From NCBI RefSeq assembly GCF_013122565.1, contig NZ_CP053258.1: a stretch of 64,000 nt of DNA; one strand, given 5' to 3'. The stretch is from Escherichia coli. GTDB taxonomy: Bacteria > Pseudomonadota > Gammaproteobacteria > Enterobacterales > Enterobacteriaceae. Every line of letters starts with the position of its first letter. Positions within the stretch are counted from its first letter, which is position 1. This document shows positions 8,361-64,000 of the stretch, one piece after another. Position numbers and translations under genes: made by a program. The notes under the pieces are model-generated. The model was not told the DNA's origin and searched no databases. It saw only the letters and a list, made by a program, of their open reading frames with translations.

Positions 8361-8437
<77 letters not shown>

Positions 8438-8516: not shown

Positions 8517-8612
8517 TTCGACTCGACGTAGGCCTGATAAGACGCGCCAGCGTCGCATCAGGCAAATGTGCCGGCCCATTGTCGGATGCAGCGTACCCGT
8601 CTTATCCGACCT
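8517..8612. repeat. REP/BIME-type palindromic units
   Basis: Palindromes gcctgataagacgcgccagcgtcgcatcaggc and gtcggatgcagcgtacccgtcttatccgac typical of enterobacterial REP elements. Confidence 0.7.
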
Positions 8613-14902: not shown

Positions 14903-16174
14903 TTACTCAATCAGCTTCAACAGTGGCGACAAGCATAGCAAAATGCCGTACAGCAGAATTAGCCAGGCTTTAAACCCGCGAAGTTTTTCCAGTTGTGCGA
15001 CTTTATAGATCAGGAAAAACGGAATGAGGCACGACACAATGCCATATAACGGGCTTCCCAACTGAAAGAACACCAGCACCGATACACGAAACGAAACCCA
15101 AATCGTCAACGTAATGACGATAAAAGCGCAGATCGCCAGAGTCAGTACGCGTGAGTTAATTTTCTTGGTATCAATAATTCGGCTTAACAGATTGAGAATA
15201 ATGCCTTTAATGGCCTCGTGGAAACCGAGATAAATGCCAAAGAATGCGGTGAGTACGGCAAAGATATTCAGCACCGTAGAGGTGATATGAATGATATGCC
15301 CAGGGATCACCTGCGCGGCCAGCGCCAGTGCCGAGATATTTTGTTCAAAGGCAGAAACGGCTTCTTCGTGGCTAATTGAGAAGGTAAACGAAAAAGCAAA
15401 AAACAGGATCACCGCGATGAGCGTGACATAACTAATTCGGTGGGTACGCAGCGCGAGCCGGGTTGCCAGTACTTTATCCGCTTCCCGTTTACGATAGGCA
15501 ATATTCATTGGGTTAAGTACCTGAATAAATACTGCAGAAAAGAAGCAAAATGGAATGGTAAGCAGGACATCGCGGAAAAAGACGGAGGCTTGTGGGAAGG
15601 CGGTTATATTGGCGAAATTCCAGTGCGGGATCATCGCAAAACCGAACACGACAATAATCCCTACTTTGACCACCACCATTGGCCCAGAAATCTTAAACAG
15701 TAATCGTTCACCACCAGACGCAATCGCCACCAGTACGGCGAAAATGGCGACTTTATAAAGTAGAGATTGTGAAAGATCGGCATCGGTTAAACCGAAGGTT
15801 TTCAGGTACGAGGCGCTGTCGAAAACCACGGAGAGAGAGTAGATAAAAATCCCGTGGATAATCATCAAAAAGTAGATAACTCCGAGGAAAATTCCCCAGT
15901 TCTTCCCCAGGTAATGACTGATAATATCGGTGTAGTCATTACAGGAATCGCTTTCAGAAAGGGTTTTTAAATAAATGTCCTGTACTACCCAGGTGGCAGG
16001 ATAAGCAATGATCGCTGCGGTAATAAATACCCAAATTCCCTTCAAGCCAATTTGTACTGGCATCAGCACGGTTCCGGCACCAATCGCCATGCCTATGCAT
16101 AATAAAACCCAGCCGAAGTCGTAGCGTGTAAACGGCAATTTCTGATCGTGTTTCGGTAGTGTGTTGTGCTGCAT
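14903..16174 (-). CDS. yhjV: Inner-membrane transporter YhjV (amino-acid permease-like)
   Basis: 423 aa from ATG at 16174 (MQHNTLPK...); multi-pass hydrophobic protein; ORF-track start 16237 is an upstream extension. Confidence 0.85.
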
Positions 16175-16532
16175 AAAGTCCTGTCCAGAAAGAAGTCGGC
16201 CTCGCAAAAATGAATAAACCCAGTTTCTCTTGCGCAACAGGTGGAGAAGTCGAATACGCAGTATGTAAAAAATGAGGCAACAGATTCACTGGGGAGGTCG
16301 CGAGGAGGCGCAATTCTACAAAATTGCGCATTTCACTACCAGTCTGGAGTCAGCCCGGATATGAACTGCAACTATTGCAAATAAAGAAATTAAGCTGGAA
16401 GGCATCACGCAATGAGGAAGATTGTCGGGTGCTGAGGGTAAAAAGCAATCGTAAAATCAGCGGCAAGCCGGAAGGGTTCCGGTGAGGCGCAATGTTGCGG
16501 GGGCTTTATCCCTGGTGGCATTGGTTGCTGGA

Positions 16533-16605
16533 GAGAGAAAACCCCCGCACGTTGCAGGTATGCACCTGACAACACCACGGGGGCTAATCTTGACTCTAGA
16601 CCACT
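16533..16605 (-). ncRNA. rdl: Rdl-type antisense RNA (type I antitoxin), copy 1; ends approximate
   Basis: Minus-strand segment antisense to the ldr leader ending in a GC hairpin plus U-tract (ccccgcacg.. / gggggttttctctc); placement by analogy to K-12 rdlD. Confidence 0.45.
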
Positions 16606-16649
16606 CAAGAATAGCCGCGAAACGTTGTCATTACAACACAGGCGGCTAT

Positions 16650-16757
16650 ATGACGCTCGCAGAGCTGGGCATGGCCTTCTGGCATGATTTAGCGGCTCCG
16701 GTCATTGCTGGCATTCTTGCCAGTATGATCGTGAACTGGCTGAATAAGCGGAAGTAA
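16650..16757 (+). CDS. ldr: Ldr-family small toxic peptide (type I toxin), copy 1
   Basis: 35-aa peptide MTLAELGMAFWHDLAAPVIAGILASMIVNWLNKRK, matching remembered LdrD-type toxin. Confidence 0.8.
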   Translation: MTLAELGMAFWHDLAAPVIAGILASMIVNWLNKRK

Positions 16758-17015
16758 CGTGTCATGCGGGCGTCAGGCTGCCGTAATGGCAATTTGCGCC
16801 CGGACCAGGCCGCAGGGGTGAAACTCTGCGGCCTTTTTCGTAAGAAAAATGCAACGGTTGCAAGCGGATAATATTCTGCGGAATGCGCAGCACAGAGTGA
16901 AGACGTGACGGATTTCGGAACAGAAAAACAGTCGTAGAATCAGCGGCAAGCCGGAAAGGTTCCGGTGAGGCGCAATGTTGCGGGGGCTTTATCCCTGGTG
17001 GCATTGGTTGCTGGA

Positions 17016-17088
17016 GAGAGAAAACCCCCGCACGTTGCAGGTATGCACCTGACAACATTACGGGGGCTAATCTTGAACCCAAACAACT
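17016..17088 (-). ncRNA. rdl: Rdl-type antisense RNA, copy 2; ends approximate
   Basis: Same arrangement in second repeat unit. Confidence 0.45.
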
Positions 17089-17132
17089 CAAGAATAGCCG
17101 CGAAACGTTGTCATTACAACACAGGCGGCTAT

Positions 17133-17240
17133 ATGACGCTCGCAGAACTGGGCATGGCCTTCTGGCATGATTTAGCGGCTCCGGTCATTGCTGGCATTCT
17201 TGCCAGTATGATCGTGAACTGGCTGAACAAGCGGAAGTAA
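17133..17240 (+). CDS. ldr: Ldr-family small toxic peptide, copy 2
   Basis: Identical 35-aa peptide in second repeat unit. Confidence 0.8.
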   Translation: MTLAELGMAFWHDLAAPVIAGILASMIVNWLNKRK

Positions 17241-17498
17241 CGTGTCATGCGGGCGTCAGGCTGCCGTAATGGCAATTTGCGCCCGGACCAGGCCGCAGGG
17301 GTGAAACTCTGCGGCCTTTTTCGTAAGAAAAATGCAACGATTGCAAGCGGATAATATTCTGCGGAATGCGCAGCACAGAGTGAAGACGTGACGGATTCCG
17401 GAGCAGAAAAACAGTCGTAGAATCAGCGGCAAGCCGGAAAGGTTCCGGTGAGGCGCAATGTTGCGGGGGCTTAATCCCTGGTGGCATTGGTTGCTGGA

Positions 17499-17571
17499 GA
17501 GAGAAAACCCCCGCACGTTGCAGGTATGCACCTGACAACATCACGGGGGCCATTCTTGAACCTGAACAACT
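17499..17571 (-). ncRNA. rdl: Rdl-type antisense RNA, copy 3; ends approximate
   Basis: Same arrangement in third repeat unit. Confidence 0.45.
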
Positions 17572-17615
17572 CAAGAATAGCCGCGAAACGTTGTCATTAC
17601 AACACAGGCGGCTAT

Positions 17616-17723
17616 ATGACGCTCGCAGAACTGGGCATGGCCTTCTGGCACGATTTAGCGGCTCCGGTCATTGCTGGCATTCTTGCCAGTATGATTGTGA
17701 ACTGGCTGAATAAGCGGAAGTAA
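17616..17723 (+). CDS. ldr: Ldr-family small toxic peptide, copy 3
   Basis: Identical 35-aa peptide in third repeat unit. Confidence 0.8.
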   Translation: MTLAELGMAFWHDLAAPVIAGILASMIVNWLNKRK

Positions 17724-17809
17724 CGTGTCATGCGGGCGTCAGGCTGCCGTAATGGCAATTTGCGCCCGGATCAGGCCGCAGGGGGTAAACTCTGCGGCCT
17801 TTTTCGTTC

Positions 17810-19489
17810 TTACTGCGGGTAAGGCACCCAGTCGCCGCCGTTCAGGCGAACGTACGGTTTATCCTGGTATTGAATAACTACTGCATTTGAGTTCTCGGAG
17901 ACCGGTGCTGTTTGTGGCAACCCACTGGTGAGTTTTTTCCAGTCAACATTGTCTTCGGTGAAAATCTTGCCATCAAGAACGCGAACCACCAGATCGGAGA
18001 TAGCCAGGAAGCTGCTCGGTTGGTCGATAACAATCGGTGCCCCCTGATGTGGTGCCTTCATGCCGAAGAATTTCACCCCAACGGGGACGTCGGTGATAGA
18101 CGGGCTAGGGATATCACGTAGGCCAGATACCTGCATTCTGTCGCCCTTCAGCGCGCCGCCGTGTTCCGGCACCACGACCACCATCACTTTACGACCCGAT
18201 TTCTCCAGTTCAGTAAAGAAGGCGTCCAGTTCATCAAAGAATTTCTGCGCCCGCGCTTTGTAATCCGCTGTTTTGCTGACGCCCGGATAATGGTTGCCGT
18301 CATGCAGTGGAAGTGTGTTGTAGAACGTGGCACTACGGCTGTTTTTATCTTTTTCGGTAACGTCCAGCCAGCGGTTAAGCACGGCGGTATCGTCATAAAC
18401 CGGCGAACCATCAAAGCCCAGCAAAATAATCGGCAGATTTGTTTGATCCATCAATTCAGTCTGCATGCCGCCATTTTCGCGAACTTCTTTCAAAAAACCG
18501 CCGAACTGGCCGTTATGTCCCATCATCAGGTGCTGGGTAAAGCCCAGTTTCGACAGGTTATCAAATAGATAGCAGTCGTTATTTGCCGGTTGATACAGAT
18601 TAGTGTGCGAAGTCTGCCCGCAGCTGGCGCGCAGTAAACGGATCGCCGCCGGGCCACTGTAGGAGGTGGCGGAGTTAAAGTTCTTGAACTCAATATCGAA
18701 ATGCGACCACAGCGGATGCGACATCAACCCGGCGGCTTCTATATCCGACCAGGAAAGCGAACAGATATTAATCACCAGTAGTTCAAATGGCTGAGCATCA
18801 GCGGGCAGCGAAGACGGGAAGGTCGATTTACGTTTCGCCTCCGCGTTATAGAAATTATTCAGCCAGGCGTTAAGGTTCGCCGTTGTTGGCGGTGCAGTTT
18901 GTGCGGGCATATCACCCACTACCGGTGCGCCACCCGTCGCCGCAACGGTTGCCGCTGCGTTACCACCCGTCGTTGTTACAGTGGTCGTCGGTTGTCCGGC
19001 TGGCCACAAGGAGAAACTTGGTCCCGCCAGGGTAAGTACGTTCAGCCATAGCAGTATGGCAACCACAAAAACGGTAATGCGAATCCATTGTGACAGGAAT
19101 AACCAGGCCACTAATAAAACAAAAATGGCCCCAATCATCTGCCAGTTAATAAAGCGTGTGACAAGGTCGATTAAATAATCGGTACTGAACCCCGCCACCT
19201 GCGAACCCTGGCTCATTATGCTTTCCGGGCCAGGCAACCAGGTGTCATGCCAGAACAAAGCAAAGCCGATCGGCAGGGCAATCCAGTGGCGCAAGCGATG
19301 CAGGCTGTAACGCGGAATGGGCATCAGCAGAAACGCGGCAAACACCAAATTGAGGAGCGGATGGAAGTTAAGATATCCCGCCCACAACAGGCCGAACTTA
19401 ACCAGAAAATAGAAGTTCCAGCCGGAAAGGCCGCGCCAGTATTGCCAGAGGGAAGAAGGCATGGCGGTATTATGCGTAAATTGAGTCAT
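17810..19489 (-). CDS. bcsG: Cellulose biosynthesis protein BcsG (phosphoethanolamine transferase for pEtN-cellulose)
   Basis: 559 aa; N-terminal TM helices plus alkaline-phosphatase-like periplasmic domain; matches remembered BcsG (YhjU). Confidence 0.9.
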
Positions 19490-55589: not shown

Positions 55590-56990
55590 ATGGACCAGAA
55601 GCTGTTAACGGATTTCCGCTCAGAACTACTCGATTCACGTTTTGGCGCAAAGGCCATTTCTACTATCGCGGAGTCAAAACGATTTCCGCTGCACGAAATG
55701 CGCGATGATGTCGCATTCCAGATTATCAATGATGAATTATATCTTGATGGCAACGCTCGTCAGAACCTGGCCACTTTCTGCCAGACCTGGGACGACGAAA
55801 ACGTCCATAAATTGATGGATTTGTCGATCAATAAAAACTGGATCGACAAAGAAGAATATCCGCAATCTGCAGCCATCGACCTGCGTTGCGTAAACATGGT
55901 TGCCGATCTGTGGCATGCGCCTGCGCCGAAAAATGGTCAGGCCGTTGGCACCAACACCATTGGTTCTTCCGAGGCCTGTATGCTTGGCGGGATGGCGATG
56001 AAATGGCGTTGGCGCAAGCGTATGGAAGCTGCAGGCAAACCAACGGATAAACCAAACCTGGTGTGCGGTCCGGTGCAAATCTGCTGGCATAAATTCGCCC
56101 GCTACTGGGATGTGGAGCTGCGTGAGATCCCTATGCGCCCCGGTCAGTTGTTTATGGACCCGAAACGCATGATTGAAGCCTGCGACGAAAACACCATCGG
56201 CGTGGTGCCGACTTTCGGCGTGACCTACACCGGTAACTATGAGTTCCCGCAACCGCTGCACGATGCGCTGGATAAATTCCAGGCCGACACCGGTATCGAC
56301 ATCGACATGCACATCGACGCCGCCAGCGGTGGCTTTCTGGCACCGTTCGTCGCCCCGGATATCGTCTGGGACTTCCGCCTGCCGCGTGTGAAATCGATCA
56401 GTGCTTCAGGCCACAAATTCGGTCTGGCTCCGCTGGGCTGCGGCTGGGTTATCTGGCGTGACGAAGAAGCGCTGCCGCAGGAACTGGTGTTCAACGTTGA
56501 CTACCTCGGTGGTCAGATTGGTACTTTCGCCATCAACTTCTCCCGCCCGGCGGGTCAGGTAATTGCACAGTACTATGAATTCCTGCGCCTCGGTCGTGAA
56601 GGCTATACCAAAGTACAGAACGCCTCTTACCAGGTTGCCGCTTATCTGGCGGATGAAATCGCCAAACTGGGGCCGTATGAGTTCATCTGTACTGGTCGCC
56701 CGGACGAAGGCATTCCGGCGGTTTGCTTCAAACTGAAAGATGGTGAAGATCCGGGATACACCCTGTACGACCTCTCTGAACGTCTGCGTCTGCGTGGCTG
56801 GCAGGTTCCGGCCTTCACTCTCGGCGGTGAAGCCACCGACATCGTGGTGATGCGCATTATGTGTCGTCGCGGCTTCGAAATGGACTTTGCTGAACTGTTG
56901 CTGGAAGACTACAAAGCCTCCCTGAAATATCTCAGCGATCACCCGAAACTGCAGGGTATTGCCCAGCAGAACAGCTTTAAACACACCTGA
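55590..56990 (+). CDS. gadA: Glutamate decarboxylase A
   Basis: 466 aa from ATG at 55590 ([22 protein letters not shown]...); PLP-lysine region [15 protein letters not shown]; ORF-track TTG start 55527 is an extension. Confidence 0.93.
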
Positions 56991-57007
56991 TAACATAACG
57001 TTGTAAA

Positions 57008-57057
57008 AACCGAATGCCCAGCCTTTAAAAAAACAGCTGGGCATTCGGTTGCTTATT
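57008..57057 (+). terminator. Rho-independent terminator after gadA
   Basis: Long stem aaccgaatgcccagc / gctgggcattcggtt followed by gcttatt. Confidence 0.75.
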
Positions 57058-57359
57058 AATCGCAATAATATATTGGCTGTCTATTCATCGTGTTAATAAG
57101 ATATATGCTATATGAATGTTTATTAAATGTAGCGATTATATGTAATGTCACGAAAAGGGATTATTTGCTTACTATTAATTTCCCTACGTTCTTAAACATG
57201 TTTTTTGTATTATAAATCCAGTCATCCTGCCCGTAGAACATCACACATTATCATCCTGTTCTCCCGCTTCGTTTAAATTTTTTATCAATCAATTTGACTT
57301 AAGAGGGCGGCGTGCTACATTAATAAACAGTAATATGTTTATGTAATATTAAGTCAACT

Positions 57360-58184
57360 ATGCAATCACTACATGGGAATTGTCTAATTGCGTACGCTAG
57401 ACATAAATATATTCTCACCATGGTTAATGGTGAATATCGCTATTTTAATGGCGGTGACCTGGTTTTTGCGGATGCAAGCCAAATTCGAGTAGATAAGTGT
57501 GTTGAAAATTTTGTATTAGTATCAAGGGATACACTTTCATTATTTCTCCCGATGCTCAAGGAGGAGGCATTAAATCTTCATGCACATAAAAAAGTTCTTT
57601 CATTACTCATTCATCACTGTAGCAGAGATATTCCTTTTTTTCAGGAAGTTGCGCAACTATCGCAGAATAAGAATCTTCGCTATGCAGAAATGTTACGTAA
57701 AAGAGCATTAATCTTTGCGTTGTTATCTGTTTTTCTTGAGGATGAGCACTTTATACCGCTGCTTCTGAACGTTTTACAACCGAACATGCGAACACGAGTT
57801 TGTACGGTTATCAATAATAATATCGCTCATGAGTGGACACTAGCTCGAATCGCCAGCGAGCTATTGATGAGTCCAAGCCTGTTAAAGAAAAAATTGCGCG
57901 AAGAAGAGACATCATATTCACAGTTGCTTACTGAGTGTAGAATGCAACGTGCTTTGCAACTTATTGTTATACATGGATTTTCAATTAAGCGAGTCGCAGT
58001 GTCCTGTGGATATCACAGCGTGTCGTATTTCATTTACGTCTTTCGAAATTATTATGGGATGACGCCCACAGAGTATCAGGAGCGATCGGCGCAGGGATTG
58101 TCGAACTGTGACTCGGCGGCAAGTATGGTTGCGCAAGGAAATTTTTACGGTATTGACTGTTCTGCGGAAGAAATAAGATTATAG
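57360..58184 (+). CDS. gadX: AraC-family acid-resistance regulator GadX
   Basis: 274 aa; C-terminal AraC-type HTH; matches remembered GadX. Confidence 0.92.
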   Translation: MQSLHGNCLIAYARHKYILTMVNGEYRYFNGGDLVFADASQIRVDKCVENFVLVSRDTLSLFLPMLKEEALNLHAHKKVLSLLIHHCSRDIPFFQEVAQLSQNKNLRYAEMLRKRALIFALLSVFLEDEHFIPLLLNVLQPNMRTRVCTVINNNIAHEWTLARIASELLMSPSLLKKKLREEETSYSQLLTECRMQRALQLIVIHGFSIKRVAVSCGYHSVSYFIYVFRNYYGMTPTEYQERSAQGLSNCDSAASMVAQGNFYGIDCSAEEIRL

Positions 58185-58200
58185 AGTTTTACTCAGGCAT

Positions 58201-58306
58201 AAAAAAAACCCGGCATAGGGGACCGGGAAGAGGATAGTCTGCCGTCTCCAGACTAATAAACCGTTATAACACTCCCTGTTGGCACGGGAAACTTTGTGCT
58301 CTCAGT
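58201..58306 (-). ncRNA. gadY: Small RNA GadY (antisense to gadX 3-prime UTR)
   Basis: Reverse complement of 58201-58306 reads actgagagcacaaagtttcccgtgccaacaggg...cccggtcccctatgccgggtttttttt, matching remembered GadY including its terminator. Confidence 0.8.
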
Positions 58307-58552
58307 AAGTTAAATATAACTTTTACTGGAAATAAGATCAGCCATTTTTTTATAAACATAAGCTATACGCTGTGTGAAAATATATTCTTATTGCATTTAC
58401 TAATTTTTAATCAACTGTTATGCAAAACTACTTTTTGGATAAATTTTGGTCCTACCAAATATGGCAGTTTTTGCACTAAGAAACAGTCTGGCATCATTTC
58501 ATTAGTATACTGAAATTGAAATAATCGCAGTAATGAAATATAAGGGATAATC

Positions 58553-59281
58553 ATGACTCATGTCTGCTCGGTGATCCTCGTTCGTCGTTCATTCGATATT
58601 TATCATGAACAGCAAAAAATATCGCTGCATAACGAGAGTATCCTGCTGCTGGAGAAAAATTTGGCAGACGATTTTGCGTTTTGTTCACCGGATACGCGAC
58701 GACTGGATATCGATGAGCTGACAGTTTGCCATTACTTACAAAATATTCGTCAGCTACCACGCAATTTAGGGTTACATAGCAAAGACCGTTTGTTAATTAA
58801 CCAGTCACCCCCCATGCCACTGGTGACGGCGATTTTTGATAGCTTCAATGAATCCGGGGTAAATTCACCGATACTGAGCAATATGCTCTACCTTTCCTGT
58901 TTATCGATGTTTTCTCATAAGAAAGAACTTATCCCCTTACTTTTCAATAGCATCAGCACTGTTTCAGGAAAAGTTGAACGCCTTATTAGCTTTGATATCG
59001 CTAAACGTTGGTATCTGCGCGATATCGCGGAAAGAATGTATACCAGCGAGAGTCTCATCAAAAAAAAGTTGCAGGATGAAAACACCTGTTTCAGTAAAAT
59101 ATTACTCGCCTCCAGGATGTCGATGGCCAGACGATTACTCGAGTTACGTCAAATTCCTCTGCATACTATTGCGGAAAAATGTGGCTATAGCAGTACATCG
59201 TACTTTATAAACACATTTCGACAATATTATGGTGTAACGCCACATCAGTTTGCGCAACATTCGCCAGGTACCTTTTCCTGA
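58553..59281 (+). CDS. gadW: AraC-family acid-resistance regulator GadW
   Basis: 242 aa; AraC-type HTH; matches remembered GadW. Confidence 0.92.
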   Translation: MTHVCSVILVRRSFDIYHEQQKISLHNESILLLEKNLADDFAFCSPDTRRLDIDELTVCHYLQNIRQLPRNLGLHSKDRLLINQSPPMPLVTAIFDSFNESGVNSPILSNMLYLSCLSMFSHKKELIPLLFNSISTVSGKVERLISFDIAKRWYLRDIAERMYTSESLIKKKLQDENTCFSKILLASRMSMARRLLELRQIPLHTIAEKCGYSSTSYFINTFRQYYGVTPHQFAQHSPGTFS

Positions 59282-59643
59282 CATATTTCGCATTTGAATA
59301 TTGGTCAGGATCTCACACCTGCTTCATGTGAAACTCTTCCCTGATGATTTCTGCCGGGCTACCGGCTAGTTCTCTTTCGCAGTTTGCCAGGCGGTATAGG
59401 TATTTTCAGGAGGAAAAGACTCGGCATGTTTGGGATTATTAAGCTGACAATTCATACGATTACGGGAATGTGGGTCAGTATTGTGTTGTTCAAATTGATG
59501 ACGAATGGCTGGAGTGGTTTCTACTTTCAGTGCTGTGTACTAAGCCTGGTATTCCTGACGGTTAGCTGGTTGTTGAGTGGTGAATGGTTAGCAGGAAAGA
59601 GTAAGGCTGAACCCTCACGTTCAACCTTACTCTCATTTACACG

Positions 59644-62600
59644 TTACGCTTTTTTAAAGCGGACAAAGAGATGTTCCACTACAACAAAAAAGACCGGAAC
59701 GAAGTAAATTGCCAGCACTGTTGCGGCAAACATCCCGCCCATCACGCCGGTACCTACCGCGTTTTGCGCGCCAGAACCGGCACCATGACTGATAACCAGC
59801 GGCAGCACGCCGAGAATAAAGGCCAGAGAGGTCATCAGGATTGGGCGTAAACGCATCCGTGCCGCTTCGATGATTGCCTCTATCGGCGTTTTCCCTTCTT
59901 TCTGCATCATCTCAACGGCAAATTCGACAATCAGGATGGCGTTCTTGGCGGAAAGCCCGATGGTGGTCAGCAAACCAACCTGGAAGTAGACGTCATTACT
60001 TAAGCCGCGCAGATCGGTGGCCAGTAATGCGCCAACGACGCCTAACGGAACAACCAACATCACCGAGAACGGAATTGACCAGCTCTCATAGAGTGCGGCG
60101 AGGGCGAGGAACACCACGACCAGTGAAATGGCATACAGTGCAGGAGCCTGGTTTGAGGATAACGCTTCCTGATACGACAGCCCGGTCCATGAGTAGCCGA
60201 CGCCTGCCGGAAGTTTAGCGACCAGGTCTGCCATAAATTTCATAGCGTCGCCGGTACTTTTCCCGGCCGCCGCTTCACCTAAAATCTCCATTGACGGGAT
60301 GCCGTTGTAGCGTTCCAGTCGCGGTGAACCATAGGTCCATTCGGTAGACGAGTAGGCAGAAAGCGGTGCCATCGTGCCAGAGGCGTTGCGTACATACCAT
60401 TGGTTGATGTTATCCGGCAACATACGGAATGGCGTGCCTGCCTGGACATACACTTTTTTCACCCGCCCCTGGTTGAGGAAGTCGTTCACGTAGCTGCTGC
60501 CGAAGGCGGTGGAAATTGTCTGGTTGATATCAGACAGCGCCACGCCCATCGCTTCAGCTTTCGCAGCGTTGACGTTGACTTTGAACATCGGCGTATCTTC
60601 CAGGCCGTTCGGGCGTACCCCGGTGACCTGATTCGGTGATTGCGCTGCCAGTGATAACAGCTCGTTTCGCGCCTGGGTTAGTTTTTCGTGCCCCAGGTTA
60701 CCGTTGTCCAGCAGTTCCATATCAAAACCTGACGCGGTACCCAGTTCAGCCACCGCGGGTAAGTTGAATGGGAAGACGACGGCTTTATTGATACTGCTTA
60801 ACGCAATCATTGCCCGCTGAATGATCGCGGTAACCGAGTTTTCCTCACCGACACGTTCAGACCACGGCTTGAGACTGATAAACGCCAGGCCGTTGTTTTG
60901 CCCCTGGCCGCTGAAGCCAAAGCCGCCAACGGTAAATACCGACTGGACATTATCTTTCTCTTTAGTCAGATAATAATCCGTCACCTGTTGCAGCACTTTC
61001 GTGGTGTTAACCATGGTGGCACCGGAAGGTAACTGCGCGGTGGTCATAAATACCCCCTGATCCTCTTCTGGTAAGAAAGAGGTCGGCGTGCGCAGGAACA
61101 GCACCGCCATCCCGGCGCAAATCAGGAGGTAGACCACCATGTAGCGACCGGTACAACGCAACAGCGAGCGGGTGCTATCGGTATAGTGCTGAGTTGATTT
61201 TTCAAACAGCGTGTTGAAGCGTGCGAACAGGGCGTTAGGTTTATGACCGCCTTCCGGCGCGGCTTTCAGAATGGTGGCGCACAGGGCAGGGGTCAGGCTC
61301 ATTGCCACAAATACTGAAAGCAGCATGGAGGAGATCAGCGTGATGGAGAACTGGCGGTAGATCTCCCCGGTTGCACCGCTCATAAAGGCCATCGGCATAA
61401 ACACTGCGGAAAGAACAACGGCAATCCCGACCAGCGCACGTTGGATCTGCCCCATCGATTTATGCGTCGCTTCCTTCGGCGGTAGCTTATCTTCCGCAAT
61501 GACACGCTCGACGTTCTCCACCACCACGATGGCGTCATCCACCAGTAACCCTATCGCCAGCACCATCCCGAACATAGTCAACGTGTTGATGGTGAAACCG
61601 ACCGCCGACAAGATCGCAAACGTCCCGAGAATAACCACCGGTACGGCAATCGTCGGGATGATTGTGGCACGGAAATTCTGCAAAAACAGATACATGACCA
61701 GGAAGACGAGGATGATAGCCTCAACCAGTGTTTTGAAAACTTCCTGAATAGAAATTTCGATAAACGGCGTGGTGTCGTAAGGATAAACCGTCTTCAGACT
61801 TGCCGGGAAATAGGCTGATAAGCGGTTCAGTTCCTCTTTGACTGCCCGCGAGGTATCCAGGGCGTTTGCTCCGGCAGCCAGTTTGATGGCGATCCCGGCA
61901 GCAGGTTTGCCGTTATAGCGCGCCACGGTGGAATAATCTTCCGCCCCAAGTTCGACGCGGGCGACATCACGCAGCAGCACTTGCGAACCATCTTGCTGAA
62001 CTTTCAACAGGATTTTGCCAAATTCTTCCGGCGTTTGCAGACGCGTCTGCACAATGATCGAGGCGTTTAGTTGCTGGTCTGCTGCCTGTGGCATGCCACC
62101 CAGTTGACCACCAGAAATCTGGTTGTTCTGCACCTTAATCTGGGAAATAACATCGGAAGGTACCAGGTTATATTTATTGAGTTTTTGCGGATCCAGCCAG
62201 ATCCGCATGGCGTACTCGGAACCAAAGAGCTGTACGCTACCAACGCCCGCGGTACGGCTTAGTGGGTCTTTGATATTAGACGCTACATAGTCCGCGATAT
62301 CGTACTGGTTGAGGCTGCCGTTATCAGAAATAAACGCCGCTACCATTAGGATATTACTGCTCGATTTATCGACGCTAATCCCCTGCTGCTGCACTGCTTC
62401 AGGTAATGAAGGCATAGCGAGTTGCAGTTTATTTTGCACCTGAACCTGTGCGATATCAGGAGATGTCCCAGTCTCGAAGGTCAGAGTGATAGAGGCATTA
62501 CCCGCCGCATCACTGGTTGAAGACATGTACATCAGGCCATCAAGCCCATTCATATTTTGCTCAATCACCTGAGTGACCGAGTCTTCTACCGTTTGCGCAT

Positions 62601-63939: not shown

Positions 63940-64000
63940 TTTAGTCCCTGAAAATTCTTGAGAAATAACGGTTCTTTAAATTGCGCGCGAGGAGAGATAT

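Follow-up and report, generated by a model that had tools for sequence, protein, structure and literature searches.

The gadX-gadW intergenic region of this Escherichia coli genome occupies positions 58185-58552 exactly, i.e. 368 bp, of the 64,000-nucleotide stretch of DNA that was analysed (hereafter the window). Seen through PGAP annotation or open reading frames only, it is an unexplained gap, which raises the question of what it encodes and how its product would act on the two flanking genes. A preliminary description had flagged this interval for GadY, an antisense small RNA (sRNA) overlapping the 3' end of gadX. The interval was correctly drawn as the intergenic region, but the sRNA itself takes up only 58201-58306 on the minus strand, a further 246 bp (58307-58552) lying between it and gadW. 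The region as a whole is almost certainly best explained by a canonical gadY gene, whose product would act as in E. coli K-12, a mode of action that we infer from published work on that strain.

Identity and position of gadY

A search of the whole window with Rfam cmscan retrieved GadY (RF00122) at 58196-58309 on the minus strand, with a score of 147.9 bits (E = 2.7e-31) for a gathering threshold of 45 bits. The match covers the full model (positions 1-114 of 114). Additionally, the minus strand of 58201-58306 was compared with the ncRNA gene gadY (b4452) of K-12 MG1655, using as reference the curated K-12 annotation (NC_000913.3 3664864..3664969, 106 nt), and was found to be identical at 106 of 106 positions. 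GadY had been proposed for this strand in the preliminary description, with alignment to annotated gadY suggested as a check; the Rfam score bears the proposal out and the alignment shows no divergence. Judged by its sequence, the gene is an exact copy, at the canonical site, of an sRNA gene that is well studied and already known. In K-12, gadY was earlier named IS183. The genes and transcribed regions concerned are as follows:

57360..58184 (TAG stop included), plus strand: gadX, an AraC-family acid-resistance activator (274-aa ORF; annotated as gadX in strain ET201)
58185..58306, plus strand: gadX 3' UTR and start of the gadX-gadW intercistronic RNA, of which 58201-58306 is perfectly complementary to GadY
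58201..58306, minus strand: gadY, full-length GadY sRNA of 105-106 nt (Rfam RF00122, identity with K-12 and conservation)
58306 and about 58201, minus strand: ends of GadY, i.e. the transcription start (after the annotated K-12 5' end) and the 3' end within the U-run
58307..58552, no strand assigned: gadY-gadW spacer of 246 bp, running from the GadY 5' end to the gadW ATG, with the gadY promoter and the upstream region or 5' UTR of gadW
58553..59281, plus strand: gadW, an AraC-family regulator and the downstream cistron of the gadXW transcript (242-aa ORF; annotated as gadW in ET201)

ET201 is the nearest complete genome and was the source of the gadX and gadW annotation.

The gene thus lies on the strand opposite to gadX and gadW, between the two, and overlaps the gadX 3' UTR. 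Its 3' end is the 17th base past the gadX stop, which agrees with the distance of 17 nt given earlier, and the 16 bases in between (58185-58200) form a gap of the same length as in K-12. Because of this gap, GadY lies outside the gadX coding sequence: the overlap with the 3' end of gadX announced in the preliminary description holds for the gadX 3' UTR and the gadX-gadW intercistronic RNA, but not for the coding part of the gene. The gene order ccp, gadA, gadX (+), gadY (-), gadW (+), mdtF (-) is that of K-12, the order of the K-12 acid fitness island appearing here in reverse orientation.

Protein-coding neighbours were also compared with K-12. The gadX gene is 96.7% identical at the nucleotide level, with 10 amino acid changes, and gadW is 98.9% identical, with a single one; GadA carries no amino acid change. 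Six of the 10 GadX changes (R246G, R250C, I256M, T265I, R267C and G271E) fall within the last 30 amino acids (58095-58184), beside the invariant GadY.

A view restricted to open reading frames was said to miss this gene, and annotation practice confirms it. Only the curated K-12 MG1655 record annotates gadY; the PGAP-annotated RefSeq genomes of E. coli that were sampled (H1-H65) do not, and show no feature under the match. The practical point of the identification is therefore correct annotation, beyond which its importance is small, GadY being, within the acid-resistance circuit of E. coli, a textbook example of a cis-antisense sRNA.

When 56900-59700 was scanned against Rfam with permissive settings, no credible RNA besides GadY appeared; matches to mir-5345 and Chlorobi-1 in this interval were rejected, as their scores were far under their respective thresholds.

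Other RNA loci were observed elsewhere in the window and its neighbourhood. An ldr/rdl type I toxin-antitoxin locus is present in three tandem copies (16441-17807, period of 483 bp, 96% matches) flanked by yhjV (14903-16237, minus strand) and bcsG (17810-19489, minus strand), K-12 having a single ldrD/rdlD pair at this locus. The rdlD matches are on the minus strand (16536-16601, 17019-17084 and 17502-17567), the Ldr ORFs end on the plus strand at 16757, 17240 and 17723, and each copy encodes the 35-aa peptide MTLAELGMAFWHDLAAPVIAGILASMIVNWLNKRK. A tRNA-Pro (CGG) gene is found at 8361-8437 on the plus strand and, about 100 bp further on, an Rfam match to naRNA4 (nucleoid-associated ncRNA 4/CssrE) at 8531-8611 on the minus strand, with 68.9 bits for a threshold of 59.5. 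Finally, two other Escherichia genomes show an Rfam match to the ES205 sRNA (100 bits; L008 6009-6080, L010 4081-4152) some 5.8 kb away from GadY in the direction of mdtF; the corresponding site here would be just past the window end at 64000.

Structure and conservation of the GadY RNA

The end of the RNA is defined by an intrinsic terminator, the presence of which had also been noted in the preliminary description:

58201..58227, minus strand: GadY intrinsic terminator, made up of a 6-bp G+C-rich hairpin (58227..58209) and a U8 tail (58208..58201), from a terminator scan

The hairpin, CCCGGTCCCCTATGCCGGG, is followed by the T8 run (TTTTTTTT), and this is the sole terminator-like site in 57900-58700 when both strands are scanned. 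It is likely that the U8 tail constitutes the Hfq-binding 3' end of GadY, an RNA reported to bind Hfq (PMC11300174, PMC11230228). The minimum free energy (MFE) and centroid folds both consist of three hairpins, which are the same as the helices of the Rfam consensus, so that the expected three-hairpin structure ending in a U-run terminator is found; the third of these helices is the terminator hairpin, which is invariant in seven Escherichia sequences. The identification nevertheless rests on homology, because the MFE of GadY does not improve on that of shuffled sequence (z = -0.73, not significant alone) and gives no thermodynamic support by itself.

In the alignment of the seven Escherichia sequences, 97.4% of cells were paired, versus 32-42% for slid controls. 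Covariation within these seven sequences amounts to zero double-sided changes, 25 of the 28 pairs never varying. The few changes that occur in Escherichia are confined to the first hairpin and to single-stranded linkers, the middle and terminator hairpins being invariant. The RNA contains two GGA motifs, of which one is located at the middle hairpin loop.

At the species level, 5412 of the 5426 complete E. coli genomes carry GadY at 99% identity or more, 13-14 have no match, and a few have GadY in two places. The 246-bp spacer, assessed in 5413 genomes, is at least 99% identical in 4, 95-99% identical in 2572 and 90-95% identical in 2837. The same gradient is seen against K-12, with 100% identity for GadY, 15 of 16 positions for the gap on its gadX side, 95.1% for the spacer and 96.7% for gadX. 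These comparisons indicate that GadY is under strong purifying selection, with a constraint far above that on the adjoining spacer, which varies by 1-10%.

An exact 18-mer scan was made with one genome per species, and it returned 14 loci. Six are in Escherichia (E. albertii, E. whittamii, Escherichia sp. E1V33, Escherichia sp. MOD1-EC7003 and two species representatives named E. coli), and all six give full-length Rfam GadY matches of 117-150 bits. The eight hits outside Escherichia roughly equal the chance expectation, and Rfam recognises GadY at none of these loci. E. fergusonii, E. marmotae and E. ruysiae are absent from the 18-mer hits; the scan requires an exact match, so their absence does not imply loss of gadY.

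What does this conservation say about the role of GadY? It is possible, if tentatively so, that the RNA works chiefly in trans, regulating many mRNAs while bound to Hfq and/or serving as a CsrA sponge, the processing of gadXW being one role only. Such a role would account for the near invariance of all 106 nt among E. coli genomes, at the level of at least 99% identity in 5412 genomes, next to variable flanks, and the two GGA motifs and the U8 tail speak for it. GadY was moreover found together with many other mRNAs on Hfq, in abundant GadY-mRNA chimeras, and was called a likely trans-acting sRNA (PMC11230228); pairing with sdiA (PMC11300174) and titration of CsrA, affecting pgaABCD and biofilm (PMC10057817), have both been reported. 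All this is, however, compatible with action in cis, the role for which experimental support is best (PMC4152358, PMC3919570), and the invariance is equally well explained by a double constraint, the same bases serving GadY and the cleavage site in the gadX 3' UTR.

Promoter, spacer and plus-strand transcript

Two elements of the gadY promoter could be placed upstream of the transcription start:

58318..58313, minus strand: gadY -10 hexamer TATATT, at -12 to -7 from the annotated K-12 5' end
58345..58338, minus strand: ATGGCTGA, a match to the AppY motif ATGSCWGM at -39 to -32, overlapping the gadY -35 region

The -10 hexamer does not vary among eight Escherichia sequences. The AppY motif and its place over the gadY -35 region have been described (PMC10057817); its core GCTGA is invariant in the aligned Escherichia species, and its first three bases vary. 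The DNA preceding the GadY start, including both elements, matches K-12 perfectly over about 70 bp, and in K-12 this promoter is active (PMC10057817). A strict sigma-70 consensus scan did not call the gadY promoter, there being no good -35 hexamer, which would fit the RpoS- and activator-dependent promoter of the literature. Three promoter-like hits of the sigma-70 scan were discarded as being at chance level (3 found versus 2.2 expected), and two small ORFs of the spacer, at 58391-58513 (plus strand, 40 aa) and 58411-58554 (minus strand, 47 aa), were taken as chance ORFs in AT-rich DNA. A 2008 study by Tramonti et al. reportedly deals with divergent promoters of gadY and gadW in this spacer.

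Over its whole length the spacer is 95.1% identical to that of K-12, with 12 differences clustered at 58375-58412, i.e. between -69 and -106 relative to the start of GadY. A rare spacer allele of this kind could change how regulators bind between the two divergent promoters, leaving gadY intact but under lineage-specific regulation. We consider this unlikely. Its rarity is real, as just 4 of the 5413 complete genomes match this spacer at 99% identity or more, and the cluster of differences does lie upstream of gadY, but the core promoter is identical to K-12 up to about -68, and the divergent stretch is also where the spacer varies most among all aligned Escherichia, which suggests weak constraint. 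A similarly low probability is given to a composite account, in which the near invariance of the 106 nt, flanked by a variable spacer and a variable 3' coding end of gadX, may reflect constraints other than cis-antisense pairing, for instance a broad role in trans with Hfq and CsrA, and, separately, the rare allele could rewire the control of gadY and gadW. The four genomes sharing this spacer at 99% or more (ET201, PT62, MB53 and LP5-1) have frog, pigeon and poultry as their sources.

Read on the plus strand, the hairpin precedes AAGAGGATAG (AAGAGG) instead of a U-run, and the scan of 57900-58700 called no plus-strand terminator-like site between gadX and gadW. Transcription of gadX can therefore continue across the stretch complementary to GadY and on into gadW. 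The notion that the conserved block is only a gadX 3' UTR or a gadX terminator, with no functional antisense RNA in this strain, finds some footing in the occurrence of the hairpin 58209-58227 in plus-strand RNA too, but it can be dismissed as hardly credible given that the U-run follows the hairpin on the minus strand only, that the Rfam match is full-length on that same strand, and that the gadY -10 and upstream promoter DNA are those of an active K-12 promoter.

Proposed mode of action and comparison with known systems

A canonical gadY is thus the preferred reading, with no feature of the sequence speaking against it, and the pairing of GadY with the gadX-gadW transcript, which the preliminary description had invoked as a known arrangement, is indeed the published mechanism (PMC4152358, PMC3919570, PMC11230228). 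In K-12, expression of GadY needs RpoS, and the RNA is cis-encoded, antisense to the gadX 3' UTR (PMC4152358). RNase III cleaves where GadY pairs with gadXW (PMC4152358, PMC3919570), and this cleavage between the cistrons stabilises the gadX and gadW products (PMC4152358). GadY-specific cleavage continues without RNase III, which has suggested another double-strand nuclease (PMC3919570). GadY species of 105, 90 and 59 nt have been described (PMC5686845), and AppY (PMC10057817) and ArcA (PMC11230228) are further inputs to gadY.

For the present strain, we propose that RpoS-containing RNA polymerase would transcribe GadY in stationary phase, with further input from GadX/GadW, AppY and ArcA, and that the products would be the 105-nt form and the processed 90- and 59-nt forms. 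GadY would then pair with the gadX 3' UTR on the gadXW dicistronic mRNA. Because the arrangement is cis-antisense, the complementarity is perfect, and the plus strand of 58201-58306 is the predicted target and cleavage region. The duplex would be cut by RNase III, probably together with at least one other nuclease, and the separate gadX and gadW mRNAs would be more stable, so that GadX would increase and, with it, gadA/gadBC expression and acid resistance. Secondary roles in trans may include Hfq-associated pairing with mRNAs such as sdiA, and CsrA titration.

Compared with K-12 gadY, the RNA, its strand, the 16-nt distance, the terminator, the promoter of about 70 bp and the neighbours are all the same. 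There is no difference within the RNA; those outside it are one substitution in the 16-nt gap, 12 in the spacer and 10 amino acids in GadX.

SdsR and SraL resemble GadY in being stationary-phase, RpoS-dependent RNAs with an intrinsic terminator (PMC4152358). They are, however, trans-encoded and pair imperfectly with distant targets. GadY, in contrast, is encoded in cis, on the strand opposite its main target. To our knowledge, most cis-antisense RNAs do not need Hfq, whereas GadY binds it.

The type I antitoxin systems Sok/hok, IstR/tisB and OrzO/zorO, as well as OOP/cII-O of phage lambda, share with GadY a location opposite the target, a perfect or extended pairing and processing by RNase III (PMC3919570). 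These antisense RNAs repress or destabilise their targets, whereas the cleavage directed by GadY stabilises both products (PMC4152358).
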